From a virus, in the UHGV virus genome UHGV-1347585: a DNA stretch of 11,163 nt; one strand, written 5' to 3'. The position numbers and the translations under genes are program-made. Positions 1 to 10,948 of the stretch are shown one piece after another. A model generated the notes under the pieces. The model ran no database searches, was not told where the DNA came from, and worked only from the letters and a program-made list of their open reading frames with translations. The first letter of the stretch is position 1. The number at the start of each line of letters is the position of its first letter.

Positions 1-72
1 AAGCCGATTGAATATTGAGCAGTAGAAAATATCTGGATTGACAGTATTACAAGGGATTGGAGAACGTCAGAA

Positions 73-102
73 GAGGTATTTTGGCGGAAGATCACAGGAG
101 TC
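73..102. repeat. Distal att direct repeat; contains a duplicated 21-nt selC 3' end fragment
   Basis: gaggtattttggcggaagatcacaggagtc at 73..102 matches 11101..11130 at 29 of 30 positions. Bases 82..102 are the reverse complement of the tRNA-Sec 3' end (gactcctgtgatcttccgcca). Confidence 0.85.
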
Positions 103-230
103 AAAATTGCCATATAACCACTTGATTCAAATCGTTTATATTTTTCTATTCTAATTCATTTATACACTTCCTTATACATATAATATCTATCGATTAATTG
201 TTACACGTATCTTCACGCACGTTAACTCAG

Positions 231-532
231 GAAAAAAATTTTTTTTCGGAAGAACTGTTCACACTGTTCACCTTTCTGTTTTTTCCTTTTATTTCAGTTG
301 GATAGGTGGTGAATAATGGGTGAAGGGTGAACATTCGATTCTTCACCTCCGGCATTCTGCCGGTGTGACTTGTGCAGGGGATTAATCCTCCGCACTGAAA
401 TCACACCGGAAGAAAAAAGTTTTTTTTGATTTGATTGTTCACACTGTTCACCTTTCGTTTTTCTCTTTTAATTTCAGTGTGATAACGGGTGAACATACGG
501 TGAAGGGTGAACAGTGGATTGTTCACCTTCGG
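231..532. repeat. crr-like cis replication region: two ~120-bp direct repeats carrying TGTTCACC-type iterons
   Basis: Units at about 231..352 and 409..532 are near-identical with a 180-bp period (tgttcacactgttcacctttc at 256..276 and 436..456). Each holds several GGTGAACA/TGTTCACC octamers in both orientations. The position just downstream of alpha matches P4 crr. Confidence 0.8.
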
Positions 533-586: not shown

Positions 587-2920
587 TCAGACTGTTGCAG
601 GGTCGTCACATTTTGGCAGCCAGTCGCCGTAGCTTTCCTCTTTCAGCGTCAGGTTGGTCTGTATCCCCTGTTTGGTATGGCGCTTCTCGTAATTCAGTCC
701 GTATTCCTTCAGCATCACCGGCAGCCCCAGCCCGAACATTTTCAGACTGAGTACGTTCCGGTAGCCGTTTGCCTCCATGTAGGCCAGATAGGCGTGATAG
801 AGGTATTTACGGTAATTACGCGGGATGATACTGGCGTTCCCCATATACATGCCGCTGGTCTGCGGCAGGGTTTCCAGATAGCCGATAAAATCAAACGTCG
901 GGTCGGCATCCCGTTTGATGTTCAGCGCCTCGTCTGAGTTCTGCTGGGACTGAAGCAGTGACCGGGCGAGCATCGGGTCGCTGAACTTCTGCATCAGGTG
1001 ACGCACGATGACCGCCAGCTCGCGGGTGATTTTGTCCTTAAGCTGCGGGTCGCGCTCCTGCGGGGCTATCTGTTCCGGGAAGTGAATAATCACCCGCCGG
1101 CGTGACACGCCGCCGCTGCGGTCGGTGAAGCGCATCGGGTTATTGTTCACGGCCAGAATCACCGCCGGGATGTGCGTGGAGTACGCATCCCGGTATTTCG
1201 GGTCAACGGACACCGCATCGCCGCCGGTGATGGCCTTGAGTCCGGCTCCGTCGCCGCTCCATTTTTCCTGGTCCGGCAGGCGTATCAGTGAGAAGCCAGT
1301 TAACGCGGCACGTTCACGCGGGGATTCCAGCGTCTCAATGGTGGCCGATGTGGCGTTATCCTCCCCGGCCAGCAGGGTGGCTATTTCGGCCATGATACTT
1401 TTGCCGCTGCCGCCGGGACCGGTCACCTCCAGAAAGAGCTGCCAGTCGTAGCGGTTTGCCAGCACCATAAACAGTGCGGCCAGAATCACGTCGCGTTTTT
1501 CCGCACGGCCACCGGCGGCACGGTCAAGCCAGCGCCAGAACGCGGGGGCGTGGGTTTCCAGCGTTTCCCCTTCCACCGGCGGGGTGAAATCCACATCGCA
1601 CAGGGTGCGCATCCAGTGTGACGGACTGTGCGGGTGGAACGTGCCGTTCTGCGTGTCGAGCACGCCGTTACGAAAGCCAATCAGGCGGCGGGAGGGGGCT
1701 TCCTGCTGCGGAATAATCAGCTTCAGGGTGTCCACCACGGAGGCCACCTTCCCGGAGGAGAACGGCGCGCGCAGACGCTGAAACAGCCCGGCCACATCCC
1801 GGGCAAAGTCCTGTGGCGGCAGCACCTTCCAGACACCATTTTCATAGCGGGACAGAAGCTGGCCGTTGGCATCGACCGCGAGCGCCTCGCCGTAATGCTC
1901 ATAGATACGCATGGCCTTTTCGCTGGTACTCATGGCGGAAAACTCCGCTTCGCTCATGGTGTCGAACGGGCTTTCAGCCGGTGGCCGGATGGCATCATAA
2001 ATGGCCTTACGGGTGGCTTCCCCGCCGTACTGCGTGAAGGCATCATTCCAGTCACCGAAGACCGGCGGCAGGGCAACAACACCTTCACACGCATCTGCGG
2101 CTGCGGCGGCTTTTTTCTGGCCGTCACCGCTGAGGTCACGGTCAGCAGCAAGGACAATCTGACAGGCCGGATGCTTCTGCCGGGCAAGGCTGGCCAGAGA
2201 AAGGAGGTTCACGGAAGAAAGCGCCACCATCACCGTTTCACCGGTCAGGTGATGTACGGTAAGTGCGGTCGCGTATCCCTCCGCTATCCACAGACGTTTT
2301 CCGGCCTGATTCTGTCCTTCAAGGATGTGACAGGTGCCCCTGACCTGTCCGCCTTTCAGGGTGCGCTTACGGCCGTCAGCACTGATTAACTGAAGGTTAA
2401 CCAGTTCGCCGCTGTCGTCATACAGTGGCACCACAAGGTCACCGGCACGCCAGCTCACGCCACCGGCTCTGTGTGTGCCGGTCAGCATCCGGCATTCCCG
2501 GCCGGGAAAGCCCTTGCGGGTCAGGTAGGCGTTACCGGTTCCGGGACGGGTTTTCGCCATCAGGGTTTGTGCCAGTGCGGCGGCGTTCTTCCGGGCGGCT
2601 TCTGTTTCAGCACCGGCGGCGGCCGTCACTGCCGGGTCAGCCGGGGGCAGGCAGCCGGTCACGGCAGCCACCTTTGCGGCCGCGTCGGACGGGGAAACAC
2701 CAAACACCTTTTCAACCAGTTTCAGGCCGTCACCGGCACCACACTGATTGCAGTACCAGGTGCCGCGCCCCTCCCTGTCATCAAAACGGAAGCGGTCACT
2801 TCCGCCACAGACCGGACAGGGCTGATGACGGTTTTTCAGCACCTGAATCCCCAGCGCCGGGAGAATACGCGGCCAGTGGCCGAGCGCATGGCTGACGGTG
2901 GCGGTTACGTTCATTTTCAT
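587..2920 (-). CDS. alpha: P4 alpha-type bifunctional primase-helicase (zinc-finger primase, TOPRIM, SF3-type helicase)
   Basis: 777-aa ORF, the length I recall for P4 alpha. N-terminal CPVCGG...YCNQCG zinc-binding motif, TOPRIM-like WIAEGYATA, Walker A GPGGSGKS. AAGGAG Shine-Dalgarno 9 nt upstream of the ATG at 2920. Iteron regions (crr, ori) are present in cis. Confidence 0.93.
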   Translation of the reverse strand: MKMNVTATVSHALGHWPRILPALGIQVLKNRHQPCPVCGGSDRFRFDDREGRGTWYCNQCGAGDGLKLVEKVFGVSPSDAAAKVAAVTGCLPPADPAVTAAAGAETEAARKNAAALAQTLMAKTRPGTGNAYLTRKGFPGRECRMLTGTHRAGGVSWRAGDLVVPLYDDSGELVNLQLISADGRKRTLKGGQVRGTCHILEGQNQAGKRLWIAEGYATALTVHHLTGETVMVALSSVNLLSLASLARQKHPACQIVLAADRDLSGDGQKKAAAAADACEGVVALPPVFGDWNDAFTQYGGEATRKAIYDAIRPPAESPFDTMSEAEFSAMSTSEKAMRIYEHYGEALAVDANGQLLSRYENGVWKVLPPQDFARDVAGLFQRLRAPFSSGKVASVVDTLKLIIPQQEAPSRRLIGFRNGVLDTQNGTFHPHSPSHWMRTLCDVDFTPPVEGETLETHAPAFWRWLDRAAGGRAEKRDVILAALFMVLANRYDWQLFLEVTGPGGSGKSIMAEIATLLAGEDNATSATIETLESPRERAALTGFSLIRLPDQEKWSGDGAGLKAITGGDAVSVDPKYRDAYSTHIPAVILAVNNNPMRFTDRSGGVSRRRVIIHFPEQIAPQERDPQLKDKITRELAVIVRHLMQKFSDPMLARSLLQSQQNSDEALNIKRDADPTFDFIGYLETLPQTSGMYMGNASIIPRNYRKYLYHAYLAYMEANGYRNVLSLKMFGLGLPVMLKEYGLNYEKRHTKQGIQTNLTLKEESYGDWLPKCDDPATV

Positions 2921-4316: not shown

Positions 4317-4373
4317 GATGGCAGCCTCCTTGAAGTAACAGTTACAGCTACCACTAGAGTTCCTACGCTCATG

Positions 4374-4452
4374 GGTGGTAGCCCGGACGGGGGTAGGAAT
4401 ACCGGCCTTCAAGGAAACCGGCCAGCCCGAAGGCTGCCCCGCCCGGACCACC
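4374..4452 (-). ncRNA. Candidate P4 CI-like immunity RNA containing the seqB-like element
   Basis: Minus-strand transcript with 5' GGUGGU and 3' ACCACC able to form a closing stem. Contains a cagcc-UUCG-ggctg tetraloop hairpin and a seqB-like segment (plus 4393..4414) complementary to the repeated elements at 4328..4368 (seqC-like) and 4548..4576 (seqA-like). Boundaries are approximate. Confidence 0.4.
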
Positions 4453-4604
4453 ATTATCTGACAGAGGCTACGGTTTAAAAACCACAGCCAGAAAAACAGG
4501 TGTGCCGAAGCAACGACGTAAAAAAAGACGCATGGCGCGTCATATGTCGCCTTGAAGTAACTCGGGTTCCTACGCCCGGCTGCCGATTTTGCGGCAGCGG
4601 AAAA

Positions 4605-4634
4605 ACTATATCCGCAAATGCCGGAAAAAGGCAA
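4605..4634 (-). promoter_or_regulatory. Candidate sigma70 promoter (P_LE-like) driving the immunity/left operon
   Basis: Minus-strand TTGCCT (4634..4629), 18-nt spacer, TATAGT (4610..4605). Located between vis and the seqA-like element. Confidence 0.45.
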
Positions 4635-6793: not shown

Positions 6794-7366
6794 ATGGAAA
6801 GCACAGCCTTACAGCAGGCCTTTGACACCTGTCAGAATAACAAAGCAGCATGGCTGCAACGCAAAAATGAGCTGGCAGCGGCCGAACAGGAATATCTGCG
6901 GCTTCTGTCAGGAGAAGGCAGAAACGTCAGCCGCCTGGACGAATTACGCAATATTATCGAAGTCAGAAAATGGCAGGTGAATCAGGCCGCCGGTCGTTAT
7001 ATTCGTTCGCATGAAGCCGTTCAGCACATCAGCATCCGCGACCGGCTGAATGATTTTATGCAGCAGCACGGCACAGCACTGGCGGCGGCACTGGCACCGG
7101 AGCTGATGGGCTACAGTGAGCTGACGGCCATTGCCCGAAACTGTGCCATACAGCGTGCCACAGATGCCCTGCGTGAAGCCCTTCTGTCCTGGCTTGCGAA
7201 GGGGGAAAAAATTAATTATTCCGCACAGGATAGCGACATTTTAACGACCATCGGATTCAGGCCTGACGCGGCTTCGATGGATGACAGCCGTGAAAAATTC
7301 ACCCCTGCGCAGAACATGATTTTTTCGCGTAAAAGTGCGCAACTGGCATCACATCAGTCTGTGTAA
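6794..7366 (+). CDS. psu: Psu-like polarity suppression / capsid decoration protein
   Basis: 190-aa ORF, the length I recall for P4 Psu, directly downstream of delta and followed by a terminator. Assignment is by length and synteny. Confidence 0.75.
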   Translation: MESTALQQAFDTCQNNKAAWLQRKNELAAAEQEYLRLLSGEGRNVSRLDELRNIIEVRKWQVNQAAGRYIRSHEAVQHISIRDRLNDFMQQHGTALAAALAPELMGYSELTAIARNCAIQRATDALREALLSWLAKGEKINYSAQDSDILTTIGFRPDAASMDDSREKFTPAQNMIFSRKSAQLASHQSV

Positions 7367-7402: not shown

Positions 7403-7430
7403 GCCATGCATCGATAAGGTGCATGGCTTT
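7403..7430 (+). terminator. Rho-independent terminator ending the sid-delta-psu operon
   Basis: Stem gccatgca/tgcatggc (7403..7410 and 7420..7427) with a 9-nt loop, followed by ttt and a further T-rich stretch. Confidence 0.6.
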
Positions 7431-7603
7431 GCATGCGTTTTCCTGCCTCATTTTCTGCAAACCGCGCCATTCCCGGCGCGGCCTGAGCGTGTCAGTGAAA
7501 CTGCATTAAAACCGCCCCGCAAAGCGGGCGGGCGTGGCGGGGAGAGCATTGCGCGCAAGCTGGGTAATTTTAGTTTCGTACATTTCTTGGTGGCAGGTAT
7601 ACT

Positions 7604-9718
7604 TTGACCGCATTTGCCGGGCAACATGTATATTGTATGAAGGATTTTAAAGATATAGTGTTTGCATTAGAAATGAATAAACCAGATGAGCAGATATCAG
7701 CATTAATTGCAAAAAAGGACATTACCATGCAGATAATAAGTGGCGAAACTAATATAAATGATGTTGGCATAAAAAAGAGATTTAAAAATTGCGAGCCATT
7801 TCAGTGTATTGTTGAGTTAGCATGGAATGGATTTGATGCCAAAGCTCGGAATGTCACTATTGAGGTGCGTAGAACTGATTTAGGCGGCCTGTCATCGGTT
7901 TATATTCTTGATGATGGTGATGGTATAGATTTTAATCACTTTGATTTGAACTTTAATAGATTTGATGATTCACTAAAAAAAGATAATATTGAATTACATG
8001 GCTCACAAGGAAGAGGAAGGCTTGCATTTCATAAGCTCAGCCGTCAAGCTATATGGTTTACTAAATATAACGATATAAATGCTAAAATAGAAATTGATGA
8101 TGCTGATCTTAAAAATTATCAAGCTTATATTAATATTCCGTATCAAGAGCAGCATTCAACATTAATCGGACAAAAAAGTGGCACATGTGTCATGTTGAAT
8201 CATTTTCATAATGATTTACCAAGTGATAATGAAATAATAAAAAGATTACAGAGTGAGTTTTGCTGTCACTTAGCACTGAACGAGCAGATAACGTTATCTT
8301 ATAATGGGGTTGTTATAACGGCACCAGAACATGATTCTCACTCATTAGAAAAAGAATTTGATGGAAGTTCATTTTCAATCAAGGCTCTCCGATGGGATGA
8401 AAAACCCTCTAAAGAAAGATCGTATGTATATTTGGTAAATTCGCAGGGTAAAAAAGTCCACGAAGTTCCAAGTAAATTTAATCAGAAAAAAGATTTCTAC
8501 CTTTCTATATTTGTCAGTTCTGACTGGGCTGATAACTTTAGTAATAAAGGCGATGATATATTTTCAGATGCTAAGTATAATGCTGACTCAAAAGTTTGGA
8601 AAGATGTCATAAAATTTGTTTGGGGATTATCAAAAAAGATATATGATGATTTCCTTCAAAAGAAAATCGACGAAACTTTAGAGCGTTATCAACAAGAGGG
8701 AGTATTCCCTTCTTATAGCGAATATTCAGATCCTAAATATGCTGAGTGGCGCTTGAATAATATCAAGGCTATCGTTCGTGATATATATATAGCCGAGCCA
8801 GCCATGCTCGATAATTTGAATACAAAACAAAGAAAGGTTTTTGTAAGGCTATTGGATAAACTATCTTCATCAAATAATAATGAGGATTTATTTAATATAC
8901 TTGAAAGCGTTTTAGATTTGAGTAAAGAGGGTTTGTCAAAACTTTCTAATCAATTAAGAATTACAAAACTTGATAATATAATTAGCGCGATTGAAGAACT
9001 ACAAAAAAGAAGGCTTGTAGTGGACAAGCTTCGTTATTTAATGGATCATCATTATAAGGAAATAAGAGAGACTCCAGATCTTCAAAAAATAATTGAAAAC
9101 AACACATGGTTGTTCGGTGAACGCTATGAAACTATCGGGGCTGAGGAAGATACTTTTACCAAAATAGCATTAGAATTAAGGAATAGTGTTAAACATATCA
9201 ACGATATTGATGAAGATGATGTTGAGAATGAGGCAGAATTAGCTGGTTCAAAACGGCAGACAGATCTATTTTTAGCCAGAAAGTACCCAGCCCTTGATTC
9301 CAATGGTAACCCATATTACAAATGCATTATCATTGAGATAAAAAGACCAAGTATTTCATTAAATATAAAACATCTAAGACAGCTTGATGATTATGCGGCA
9401 ATAATTCAAAGACATCCGGGGTTTAGTAGTCAAAATTTGCATTTTGAGCTCATACTCATAGGTCGTAAAATATCTAAAGATAGTTTCGAAATAGAAAGTA
9501 GATTGAATTCACATATACAAAAAGGTGATATGGGATTAGTTGGGGATGATCCTAGGATGAAGCGCTACGTTAAAAACTGGTATACCATTTTTGATGGTTT
9601 CGAACTCACTAATAGATTTATGCTTGATAAATTGAAATTAGAAAGAGATAGCTTAGAACTTGGTGAAATATGTTCGAAAGAAATTGTTTCAGAATTACAA
9701 GGTAACTTAAGTAAATAA
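7604..9718 (+). CDS. Cargo protein: N-terminal GHKL/Bergerat-fold ATPase fused to a C-terminal PD-(D/E)xK-like nuclease motif; candidate single-gene anti-phage defence protein
   Basis: 704-aa ORF from a TTG; internal ATGs at 7637, 7673 and 7727, the last with an AAGGA Shine-Dalgarno, are plausible true starts. N-box ELAWNGFDA, G1 box DDGDGI and G2 box GSQGRG occur in canonical order and spacing. The C-terminus has TDLF...IIEIKR (D...ExK). The gene is visibly AT-rich (roughly one third GC by eye) against a GC-richer backbone and occupies the psu-int slot. Confidence 0.85.
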   Translation: MTAFAGQHVYCMKDFKDIVFALEMNKPDEQISALIAKKDITMQIISGETNINDVGIKKRFKNCEPFQCIVELAWNGFDAKARNVTIEVRRTDLGGLSSVYILDDGDGIDFNHFDLNFNRFDDSLKKDNIELHGSQGRGRLAFHKLSRQAIWFTKYNDINAKIEIDDADLKNYQAYINIPYQEQHSTLIGQKSGTCVMLNHFHNDLPSDNEIIKRLQSEFCCHLALNEQITLSYNGVVITAPEHDSHSLEKEFDGSSFSIKALRWDEKPSKERSYVYLVNSQGKKVHEVPSKFNQKKDFYLSIFVSSDWADNFSNKGDDIFSDAKYNADSKVWKDVIKFVWGLSKKIYDDFLQKKIDETLERYQQEGVFPSYSEYSDPKYAEWRLNNIKAIVRDIYIAEPAMLDNLNTKQRKVFVRLLDKLSSSNNNEDLFNILESVLDLSKEGLSKLSNQLRITKLDNIISAIEELQKRRLVVDKLRYLMDHHYKEIRETPDLQKIIENNTWLFGERYETIGAEEDTFTKIALELRNSVKHINDIDEDDVENEAELAGSKRQTDLFLARKYPALDSNGNPYYKCIIIEIKRPSISLNIKHLRQLDDYAAIIQRHPGFSSQNLHFELILIGRKISKDSFEIESRLNSHIQKGDMGLVGDDPRMKRYVKNWYTIFDGFELTNRFMLDKLKLERDSLELGEICSKEIVSELQGNLSK

Positions 9719-9721
9719 TAT

Positions 9722-9755
9722 GCATATTGCATCGGTGAAATACTGATGCAATATG
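9722..9755. terminator. Hairpin between the convergent cargo gene and int; possible bidirectional terminator
   Basis: 11-bp perfect stem catattgcatc/gatgcaatatg with an 11-nt loop, flanked by AT-rich sequence, lying between the two convergent stop codons (9718 and 9770). Confidence 0.5.
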
Positions 9756-9769
9756 TTAGCATATAATAA

Positions 9770-10948
9770 TTATATTATGGCTGTTGTTAATAGGAAATCA
9801 CTATACCATTGCAACATTATTTTTCGATTTTCAATATATTGTGCATGATTGTATGTTCCACGAATGCTGTTCTTATCTACATGTGCAAGCTGCATCTCAA
9901 TCCACGCACTTTCAAATCCTTGTTCATGTAAGATCGTTGACATTGTGTGTCTGAATCCGTGACCTGTCGCACGTCCTTTGTAGCCCAGTAATTCAATTAC
10001 CTGCGACACACTTTCTTTAGAGATCGGTTTACTACGATTATTTCTACCAATAAAAATGTAGGGATAATGGCCGGTAATAGGTTTGAGCTGCTTAAATAGC
10101 TCAACTACCTGAGTAGATAAAGGAACAATGTGAGGCCTACGCATTTTCATCCGTTCTGCTGGTATTTCCCATATACTTTTCTCAAGGTCAACCTCATCCC
10201 ATGTAGCAAAGCGCATCTCTTGGGTTCGTACACCGGTCAGCATGACGATTTTTGTCGCATTCTTAGTGATAATGCTGCCGGTATACGCTTCAAGATCCCG
10301 AATAAAATGAGGTAACTCTTCAGCGGATAAAAATGGATGATGCTTTTGCTTCGGAACGGCCAAAGCAATAGCCAAATCAGGAGCAGGATTGTATTCTGCG
10401 CGGCCAGTTATAATTGCATAGCGATAGACCTCGCCGCATCTTTGGCGCACTTTTCTGGTCTTCTCTAGCGCTCCACGCTTCTCTATTCGCCGCAATACTT
10501 CAAGCAGTTCTAACGGTTTGATTTCACTGATAGGGCGTTTACCAATGAACGGGAACACATCTTGTTCAAATGTCTTAATGATTTCTTCGCGATAGGCCAC
10601 TGTCCAGCGGTCAGCTTTGTTGGTGTGCCATTCTCGACATATGGCTTCGAATGAATTCTCTGTTGAGAGTTGCTGTGCCAGCTTTTGGGCTTTACGTTCT
10701 TCTACTGGGTCTATGCCGTTTGCTACCTGCTTACGAGCTGTATCGCGTTTCTCACGTGCTTCTGCGAGGCTCACAAGGTCGTAGCTGCCAAATGACATTA
10801 GCCGTGCTTTACCGGCAAAACGAAAGCGGAAGCGCCAGCCCTTTGAGCCGTCTGGATTGATGAGTAATGACAGGCCTTGTCCATCGTTCAATGTGTAGGG
10901 CTTGTCTTGGGGCTTTGCTCGTTTAATTTGAATGTCTGTGAGTGGCAT
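9770..10948 (-). CDS. int: P4-family tyrosine integrase (site-specific recombinase), selC-specific
   Basis: 392 aa. N-terminus with the P4-integrase-like arm-binding signature (KPYTLNDGQGLSLLINPDGSKGWRFRFRF). C-terminal catalytic motifs HGFRHT and RGTYNHAQY contain the tyrosine nucleophile. Lies next to the selC 3' end in the same orientation. Confidence 0.95.
   Translation of the reverse strand: MPLTDIQIKRAKPQDKPYTLNDGQGLSLLINPDGSKGWRFRFRFAGKARLMSFGSYDLVSLAEAREKRDTARKQVANGIDPVEERKAQKLAQQLSTENSFEAICREWHTNKADRWTVAYREEIIKTFEQDVFPFIGKRPISEIKPLELLEVLRRIEKRGALEKTRKVRQRCGEVYRYAIITGRAEYNPAPDLAIALAVPKQKHHPFLSAEELPHFIRDLEAYTGSIITKNATKIVMLTGVRTQEMRFATWDEVDLEKSIWEIPAERMKMRRPHIVPLSTQVVELFKQLKPITGHYPYIFIGRNNRSKPISKESVSQVIELLGYKGRATGHGFRHTMSTILHEQGFESAWIEMQLAHVDKNSIRGTYNHAQYIENRKIMLQWYSDFLLTTAII

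Follow-up and report, generated by a model that had tools for sequence, protein, structure and literature searches.

A GHKL ATPase-nuclease in the psu-int hotspot of a P4-like satellite: a probable single-protein anti-phage gene of the paraMORC3/GHKL-type Shedu group

The viral genome UHGV-1347585, analysed here as one stretch of 11,163 nucleotides (the window), is a P4-like satellite in which the exchangeable segment between psu and the integrase gene (int) is occupied by one gene. The product of this gene combines a GHKL (Bergerat-fold) ATPase with a PD-(D/E)xK nuclease, and we consider it likely to be an anti-phage nuclease that works as a single protein, is of the paraMORC3, or GHKL-type (type 1D) Shedu, kind, and is carried as exchangeable cargo of the satellite. 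The anti-phage role is probable on sequence-level evidence, namely the remote full-length homology to a validated defence protein (VcSduA), the defence-island and mobile-element contexts of the relatives and the conservation of the catalytic residues. Residue numbers are those of the 663-amino-acid (aa) version of the protein unless the 704-aa open reading frame (ORF) is stated.

The protein consists of four parts: a GHKL ATPase domain, a middle domain, a helical linker and a PD-(D/E)xK nuclease domain (Table 1). A preliminary description of the window, made by a model from the sequence alone, had picked out three Bergerat-fold strings, and these were borne out: ELAWNGFDA at residues 30–38 (nucleotides 7814–7840), DDGDGI at 62–67 (7910–7927) and GSQGRG at 92–97 (8000–8017). 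They belong to motifs I (E30xxxN34), II (D62xG64xG66) and III (G92xxG95xG97-R98), which together with motif IV (G152-T153) follow one another in canonical order. The profile search that had been proposed for this region found Pfam HATPase_c_3 (E = 1.9e-15; score 57.6 bits, cut-off 25), and a profile of the family matched, in the PDB, PMS1 (4.8e-9) and TopoVI-B (1.7e-7), and also MLH1, MutL, MORC2 and Hsp90. The suggested structure prediction and fold comparison gave a concordant picture. Two AlphaFold models were used, one of the full length and one of residues 285–663 (predicted local distance difference test scores, pLDDT, of 78.2 and 77.9, respectively), and the Foldseek matches were headed by MORC2/3/4, followed by Hsp90/TRAP1, GyrB and MLH1. 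E-values for MORC, Hsp90, GyrB and MLH1 ranged from 1e-10 to 1e-8, and the alignments, being 320–460 columns long, span both the ATPase domain and the transducer/S5-type middle domain. Two short segments, residues 81–85 and 91–95, have pLDDT values below 50; judging by its position between motifs II and III, the loop of residues 81–95 may be a flexible ATP lid.

The beta-rich middle domain, with an invariant W223 and conserved F257, S260 and S265, appears from the predicted structure to be an S5-type domain following the GHKL domain. It had been overlooked in the preliminary description, which placed a K/E/L-rich, possibly coiled-coil region between the two catalytic ends; the helical stretch itself is real and consists of 13% leucine and 11% lysine. 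The C-terminal nuclease motif noted at that time was also recovered, as TDLF at residues 512–515 (9260–9271) and IIEIKR at 535–540 (9329–9346), and the full set of nuclease residues comprises E448, E465 (motif I), D513 (II), E537-x-K539 (III) and Q552xxxY556 (IV). Thus, GHKL motif IV and nuclease motifs I (E465) and IV (Q552xxxY556) are added to the motifs seen before, and the fusion of a GHKL ATPase to a PD-(D/E)xK nuclease is upheld by the Pfam match, the fold matches and the invariant catalytic residues.

Conservation was assessed in 107 full-length representatives, which are 22–45% identical to the window protein. Ten residues (N34, G95, R98, W223, W461, D513, E537, K539, Y556 and W618) are invariant in all 107, and a further eight (E30, D62, G64, G66, G97, E448, E465 and Q552) are conserved in 92–99% of them; the individual counts are 99 for E30, 106 each for D62 and G64, 104 for G66 and 102 for E465. 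Because these catalytic residues are invariant or nearly so at only 22–45% identity, the alignment indicates strong purifying selection on both catalytic centres. At residue 30 (window 7814–7816), glutamine replaces the motif I glutamate in eight of the 107 proteins, and the nuclease triad is invariant in those eight. A change of glutamate to glutamine at this position of a GHKL enzyme usually preserves ATP binding and blocks hydrolysis.

The relatives are numerous and scattered. When 1.84 billion cluster representatives were searched exhaustively, 1324 relatives reached E <= 1e-3 and 191 reached E <= 1e-30; most of them are 650–690 aa long and align from end to end at 25–35% identity. They occur in Pedobacter, C. 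difficile and Candidatus Moranbacteria, on plasmids of Deinococcus, Streptomyces and alpha-proteobacteria, and in two Pasteurella phages. The full-length copy in one of these phages, Pmp3 (OR544134.1, 5962–7920), is 23% identical to the window protein and is an accessory gene lying among tail and baseplate genes, with anti-repressor (Ant) genes on its flanks. A Klebsiella orthologue occupies the same psu-int slot of a P4-like element that is integrated at a different chromosomal site, and a Salmonella relative lies in an integrase-rich island. When four unrelated contexts were compared, the neighbouring genes were not conserved, and the gene therefore stands alone. Such surroundings are typical of mobile defence genes, and the sporadic spread across phyla fits horizontally mobile defence genes as well.

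The preliminary description could not assign the architecture to any named system and allowed that it might be novel. This does not hold, since three published descriptions cover it: paraMORC3 (PMC2292703), type 1D Shedu (bioRxiv 2023.08.10.552793) and, by homology, VcSduA (PMC12137116). The description had itself stated that a match to a named family would count against novelty and leave the function untouched, and this is how the result should be read. Iyer, Abhiman & Aravind (2008; PMC2292703) defined paraMORC3 as a GHKL domain, an S5 domain and a C-terminal domain of the restriction-endonuclease fold with an E-D-ExK signature, encoded by often standalone genes with a sporadic distribution in proteobacteria and bacteroidetes. 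All of these defining features (GHKL, S5 and E-D-ExK nuclease domains, a standalone gene and sporadic occurrence) are found in the window protein; paraMORC3, however, is a computational family only, to which no defence role was assigned. Gu et al. (bioRxiv 2023.08.10.552793; Mol Cell 2025) assembled the Shedu set by iterating PSI-BLAST, with the DUF4263 domain of the B. cereus protein as query, until it converged, and their type 1D contains HATPase_c_3, a middle domain called N24, and DUF4263. The middle domain of the window protein is the equivalent of both N24 and the S5 domain of paraMORC3.

The only member of this group with an experimental test is VcSduA, which comes from the WASA lineage of V. 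cholerae, combines GHKL with DUF4263 and was described by Adams et al. (2025; PMC12137116). In E. coli it confers protection from Drexlerviridae and in V. cholerae from phage X29, and defence is lost in the E27A (ATPase) and K557A (nuclease) mutants (PMC12137116). For comparison, the first ~500 residues of VcSduA were taken from the supplement of bioRxiv 2024.11.23.624991, and the full-length members of its family were retrieved from the protein database; E27, N31, D76xGxG, D527 and E555xK557 in that family match the published numbering. A search for VcSduA itself among the 50%-identity representatives, by means of E27/K557 and cluster names, found no Vibrio entry. The decisive evidence came from comparing the profiles of the window family and the VcSduA family by hhalign (probability 99.0, E = 4.7e-18): 537 columns align collinearly at 16% identity, starting at GHKL motif II, taking in the middle domain and the linker, and extending as far as the nuclease terminus. 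Both are single proteins of ~670 aa with the same collinear succession of GHKL domain, middle domain, helical linker and PD-(D/E)xK domain, and both reside on mobile islands (a P4-like satellite for the window protein and the VSP-II island for VcSduA). The catalytic residues correspond throughout: E30/N34 to E27/N31, D62xGxG to D76xGxG, D513 to D527, and E537xK539-R-P to E555xK557-R-P. E30 is equated with E27 because each is the first residue of the motif I ExxxN, and K539 with K557 because the lysines of the two ExK motifs are aligned. On these comparisons of sequence, the window protein belongs to the paraMORC3/GHKL-Shedu superfamily as a remote relative of VcSduA, in a clade separate from it.

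Profile searches for known defence systems were less informative. Pfam SduA_C (PF14082) gave no match to the window protein at E <= 1; it matched three of 56 close relatives (E >= 0.018) and none of 72 wider relatives (at E <= 0.01). The PADLOC v2 SduA model matched the window protein below threshold (E = 1.5e-3) and 42 of the 56 close relatives (best overall, 1.3e-5); one wider relative reached E = 7.8e-7. However, the VcSduA family matches neither Pfam HATPase_c_3, nor Pfam SduA_C, nor any PADLOC v2.0.0 model, and since VcSduA itself fails these profiles, such failure says nothing about membership in the GHKL-Shedu group. For this reason the SduA_C result (0/72) was dropped as an argument against Shedu, the experimentally validated VcSduA family being equally without Pfam and PADLOC matches. 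The window protein in fact differs from VcSduA in having both the HATPase_c_3 match and the weak SduA match. Searches of the PDB, with the single sequence and with the profile, returned GHKL matches only and no SduA, and Foldseek returned no Shedu match; the PDB holds no solved structure for any member of the window or VcSduA family. The nuclease domain is nevertheless structurally similar to that of solved Shedu.

Two other models were commoner in the wider family than SduA, and they bear on a different explanation, in which the protein would be a restriction endonuclease that depends on ATP, works without partners (as a Type IV-like or orphan Type II-like enzyme) and recognizes a DNA sequence or modification directly. 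Pfam HSDR_N_2, the nuclease domain of the R subunits of Type I restriction enzymes, matched 38 of the 72 wider members, and PADLOC REase_II (PDLC03419) matched 17 of them (best E = 2.6e-16) along with four of the 56 close relatives. The literature offers some further support, as MORC and paraMORC genes were found mostly in restriction-modification contexts by Iyer et al. (2008; PMC2292703) and some Shedu classes were proposed to be Type IV-like by Gu et al. (bioRxiv 2023.08.10.552793). On the other hand, the HSDR_N_2 matches are limited to the generic core strands of the D...ExK fold and are mostly sub-threshold, and the REase_II models (PDLC03419/03485) did not match the window protein at E <= 1. 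No methyltransferase is encoded in the cargo, the hotspot or the window, and the nuclease-bearing paraMORC3 genes, in particular, are standalone without conserved restriction-modification neighbours (PMC2292703). A restriction enzyme of this kind is therefore unlikely, though it deserves mention.

The proposed assignment to a GHKL-type Shedu has points against it, most of which concern the distance to VcSduA. In pairwise BLASTP, the similarity (E = 3e-4) was confined to the GHKL region, accompanied by a second collinear segment in which TDLF...IIIEIKRP of the window protein is aligned with PDLL...TVVEIKRP of VcSduA. An identity of ~16%, at the profile level, is a very remote similarity, so the phage range, the trigger and the outcome (direct protection or abortive infection) could differ from those of VcSduA, the sole tested member of the group, which lies outside the clade of the window protein. 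Moreover, the published hits of the VcSduA model (543 in 45,725 RefSeq genomes) include no Escherichia, although the inclusion of the carrier genomes in that set was unchecked. Finally, a scan for sigma-70 promoters over window 7569–7726 found no convincing site and no excess over shuffled sequence. N-terminal peptides of the window protein were likewise not found in Supplementary Table 5 of the VcSduA study (bioRxiv 2024.11.23.624991).

These points leave some room, which we judge to be small, for a more divergent function, in which the Enterobacterales clade would be a distinct ATP-gated DNA-clamp nuclease, a prokaryotic counterpart of MORC, with a trigger and a phage range of its own. Its sensing logic could differ both from that of VcSduA and from that of the end-sensing canonical Shedu, because the identity to VcSduA is 16% and the clade is absent from the hit lists, or falls below the thresholds, that were checked. 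Such a nuclease might leave untouched the P2-type helper on which the satellite depends and destroy competing phages.

As for the favoured reading, a GHKL-type Shedu nuclease, its action can be sketched by analogy. Two protomers would dimerise through their N-terminal GHKL domains on binding ATP, as GHKL enzymes generally do and as in the dimer model of VcSduA, whose published tetramer model is poorly supported (PMC12137116). The closed dimer, together with the S5-like middle domains, may form a clamp or cavity for DNA, and the long helical linker would carry the effect of the cycle of ATP binding and hydrolysis to the C-terminal PD-(D/E)xK domains and so license them. The nuclease would then cut the invading phage DNA with E465, D513, E537, K539 and Q552, residues that are all present in the sequence. 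As to how phage DNA would be told from that of the host, our leading guess is that free ends of the DNA are recognized, the cue reported for canonical Shedu.

The host cell would be expected to survive, as reported for VcSduA and B. cereus Shedu, both non-abortive. An alternative outcome is that the protein is an abortive-infection toxin, whose nuclease, once triggered, degrades host and phage DNA alike so that the infected cell dies. Abortive infection is common among the cargos of P4 and P2 hotspots (Rousset 2022), the type 1B Shedu PD-T4-8 of E. coli was proposed to be abortive (cited by Gu et al.), and the nuclease here has no evident specificity element. Since VcSduA was protective at all multiplicities of infection tested (PMC12137116) and B. 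cereus Shedu is reported to be non-abortive, however, we regard a suicidal mode of action as improbable, decidedly so.

Canonical Shedu, represented by SduA of B. cereus B4264 (PDB 8ti8/8ti9; Gu et al. 2025, Loeff et al. 2025), differs from the window protein in several respects. Its N-terminal module is of the sPC4/Whirly type, whereas a GHKL ATPase and a middle domain are found here; the spacing from the catalytic lysine to the glutamine is 29 residues, as against 13 here; and it is a tetramer, whereas a dimer is favoured in the published models of VcSduA. The auto-inhibition of its nuclease by the N-terminal and linker domains, on the other hand, is a basis of the licensing step proposed above. 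By analogy with other GHKL enzymes, the activity of the window protein would be expected to depend on ATP, unlike that of canonical SduA. The resemblance to eukaryotic MORC, and to MutL, Hsp90 and GyrB, lies in the Bergerat fold and the transducer/S5 domain (MORC2/3/4 being the top Foldseek matches, at E ~1e-10), and an ATP-driven dimeric clamp, the mode of action of GHKL ATPases of the MORC/MutL type, may be expected of the window protein too. Nevertheless, it has none of the CW, coiled-coil or chromatin domains of MORC, nor the C-terminal endonuclease/dimerisation domain of MutL.

The start of the gene required revision. The preliminary description had given a 704-aa ORF at 7604–9718 on the plus strand; this ORF does exist, reading from a TTG at 7604, but its start and length probably do not hold. 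Translation most likely begins at ATG 7727, which gives 663 aa, because the homologues are 655–675 aa long and their first residue corresponds to residue 42 of the ORF, because an AAGGA (7715–7719) lies 7 nt 5' of this ATG, and because the Klebsiella orthologue (82% identical) begins with MRIISGETN behind an AAGGA of its own. Since the DNA upstream of the Klebsiella start is unrelated, the first 41 codons of the 704-aa ORF appear to be non-coding, and 7604–7726 is probably an untranslated leader with AAGGA as its Shine-Dalgarno sequence. The Prokaryotic Genome Annotation Pipeline (PGAP) places the start at ATG 7637 (WP_231528590.1, 693 aa); as the comparison with the orthologue favours ATG 7727, this RefSeq model probably has 30 codons too many at its 5' end. 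All three versions have been deposited, the 663-aa form on 415 contigs, the 693-aa form on 226 and the 704-aa form on 49.

That the window is a P4-like satellite is evident from its genes for the alpha primase-helicase, a DUF5375 protein, an AlpA/Vis regulator, an Ogr/Delta zinc-finger protein, Psu and the integrase, as recognized by Pfam, and an identical element is present in E. coli WP2-W18-ESBL-10, in whose genome tRNA-Sec lies just past the integrase gene. The slot between psu and int had been described earlier as a variable hotspot holding a single ORF, and this was confirmed by the satellite genes, the base composition and the distribution of the segment. The cargo island (~7569–9769), of which the ATPase-nuclease gene is the sole cargo, has a length of 2.2 kb and a GC content of 32.8%, compared with 56.1% in the surrounding backbone; its low GC content marks the gene as foreign. 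The backbone flank up to window 7568 was matched by megablast in 1080 of 5426 complete E. coli genomes, but only 18 of the 5426, that is, 18 of the 1080 with a matching flank, carry the cargo (at 100% identity), and the alignment to the Klebsiella backbone stops near window 7566. This distribution is the behaviour of a hotspot cargo.

The same distribution bears on the idea of a housekeeping gene, that is, either a MutL-like repair factor or a factor of the P4 life cycle or of helper-phage exploitation. Some database records do name the protein a 'DNA mismatch repair protein', and its N-terminal domain is closest in sequence to MutL, PMS1 and MLH1. However, the match to the MutL model is confined to residues 65–131 of the 704-aa ORF, and the C-terminal domain of MutL is absent, a PD-(D/E)xK nuclease standing in its place. 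The MutL equivalogs of NCBIfam scored only 25.5 bits against a cut-off of 180 (TIGR00585) and 17–23 bits against 693–756 (NF0009xx), and as these scores are far below the cut-offs, a role in MutL-type repair was rejected. A gene present in 18 of 5426 genomes, and in 18 of 1080 with the flank, is not a core function of P4, and its relatives outside satellites and its low GC content likewise speak for a foreign cargo. A housekeeping role is accordingly very improbable.

Table 1. Features of the window and of the ATPase-nuclease gene
Feature	Position	Strand	Basis
ATPase-nuclease gene (663-aa GHKL-ATPase/nuclease), stop included	7727..9718	+	homologue starts, AAGGA, Klebsiella orthologue
In-frame 5' extension of the 704-aa ORF	7604..7726	+	not conserved in Klebsiella; covered by no homologue
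GHKL (Bergerat-fold) ATPase domain, residues 1-192	7727..8302	+	Pfam, PDB profile matches, motif conservation
Beta-rich middle domain, residues ~193-285, S5/transducer-like	8303..8581	+	model secondary structure, Foldseek
Helical linker, residues ~286-445; long helices 289-323, 336-356, 400-445	8582..9061	+	
PD-(D/E)xK nuclease domain (alpha/beta), residues ~446-645	9062..9661	+	motif set
Variable cargo segment of the psu-int hotspot	7569..9769	.	GC, megablast break, end of Klebsiella alignment
psu, left border of the hotspot	6794..7366	+	Pfam Psu E = 2.2e-88; PGAP: phage polarity suppression protein
P4-type tyrosine integrase gene, right border of the hotspot	9770..10948	-	Pfam Arm-DNA-bind_3, Phage_int_M, Phage_integrase
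Inverted repeat/stem-loop (14 nt, 93% complementary, 5-nt loop)	9723..9755	.	between the convergent stops of the cargo gene and int
alpha-type primase-helicase gene	587-2920	-	
P4-type immunity region (C4/CI)	4371-4611	-	Rfam matches, all above gathering thresholds
C4 antisense RNA	4371-4458	-	Rfam, 86 bits
isrK	4521-4598	-	Rfam
a1/b1 targets of C4	4559-4611	-	Rfam

Several smaller features surround the cargo gene (Table 1). The inverted repeat downstream of it may act as a terminator, possibly shared with int, although a T-run is lacking. The backbone between psu and the cargo contains a terminator-like GC-rich hairpin (7512–7531) with a T-run on the minus strand. At the other end of the satellite, past the alpha gene, window 1–500 has a GC content of 36.6%, and a fragment of a RhuM-family pseudogene adjoins it in the genome; this segment may be what is left of an island at the opposite junction of the satellite. 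In one carrier strain (NZ_AP021935.1), an ISEcp1-blaCTX-M-14 unit (locus 18081–20467) is inserted inside yicI, ~2.5 kb past the satellite integrase gene and tRNA-Sec and outside the window.

The gene seems to have been seen before in a survey of hotspot contents. Among the contents of P4 hotspots, Rousset et al. (2022) include a lone 'HATPase_c_3' protein, WP_089563614, which is probably the window protein because the accession of its neighbour falls in the same numerical run as those of psu and int of the present element. A 62-aa ORF within 7419–7607 may be the 'hypothetical protein WP_047615349' listed next to the HATPase_c_3 protein in that table. The sequence of the HATPase_c_3 protein is absent from the systems tested by Rousset et al. 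(2022), and neither the Domainator paper nor a 2026 preprint on P2/P4 hotspots mentions the window protein, Shedu or HATPase.

In short, the gene adds a representative that is native to E. coli and borne by a satellite to the GHKL-type Shedu/paraMORC3 group. It opens no new category of system: the architecture had already been described, and what is new is this clade, which is missed by the VcSduA hit table and, above threshold, by PADLOC v2. The clade is widespread (191 clusters at E <= 1e-30, with the 663-aa form on as many contigs as given above), yet its members carry generic names such as 'ATP-binding protein'. Because the window protein is absent from the VcSduA table and has no significant PADLOC v2 match, censuses of defence genes in P4 hotspots may count it as 'unknown'; judging by the VcSduA family, the GHKL-Shedu group as a whole would escape detection by Pfam HATPase_c_3, SduA_C and PADLOC v2.0.0. 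As a compact single gene of E. coli, it is a convenient system for studying how a GHKL ATPase gates a nuclease, a question that is also relevant to the action of MORC-type ATPases on DNA.

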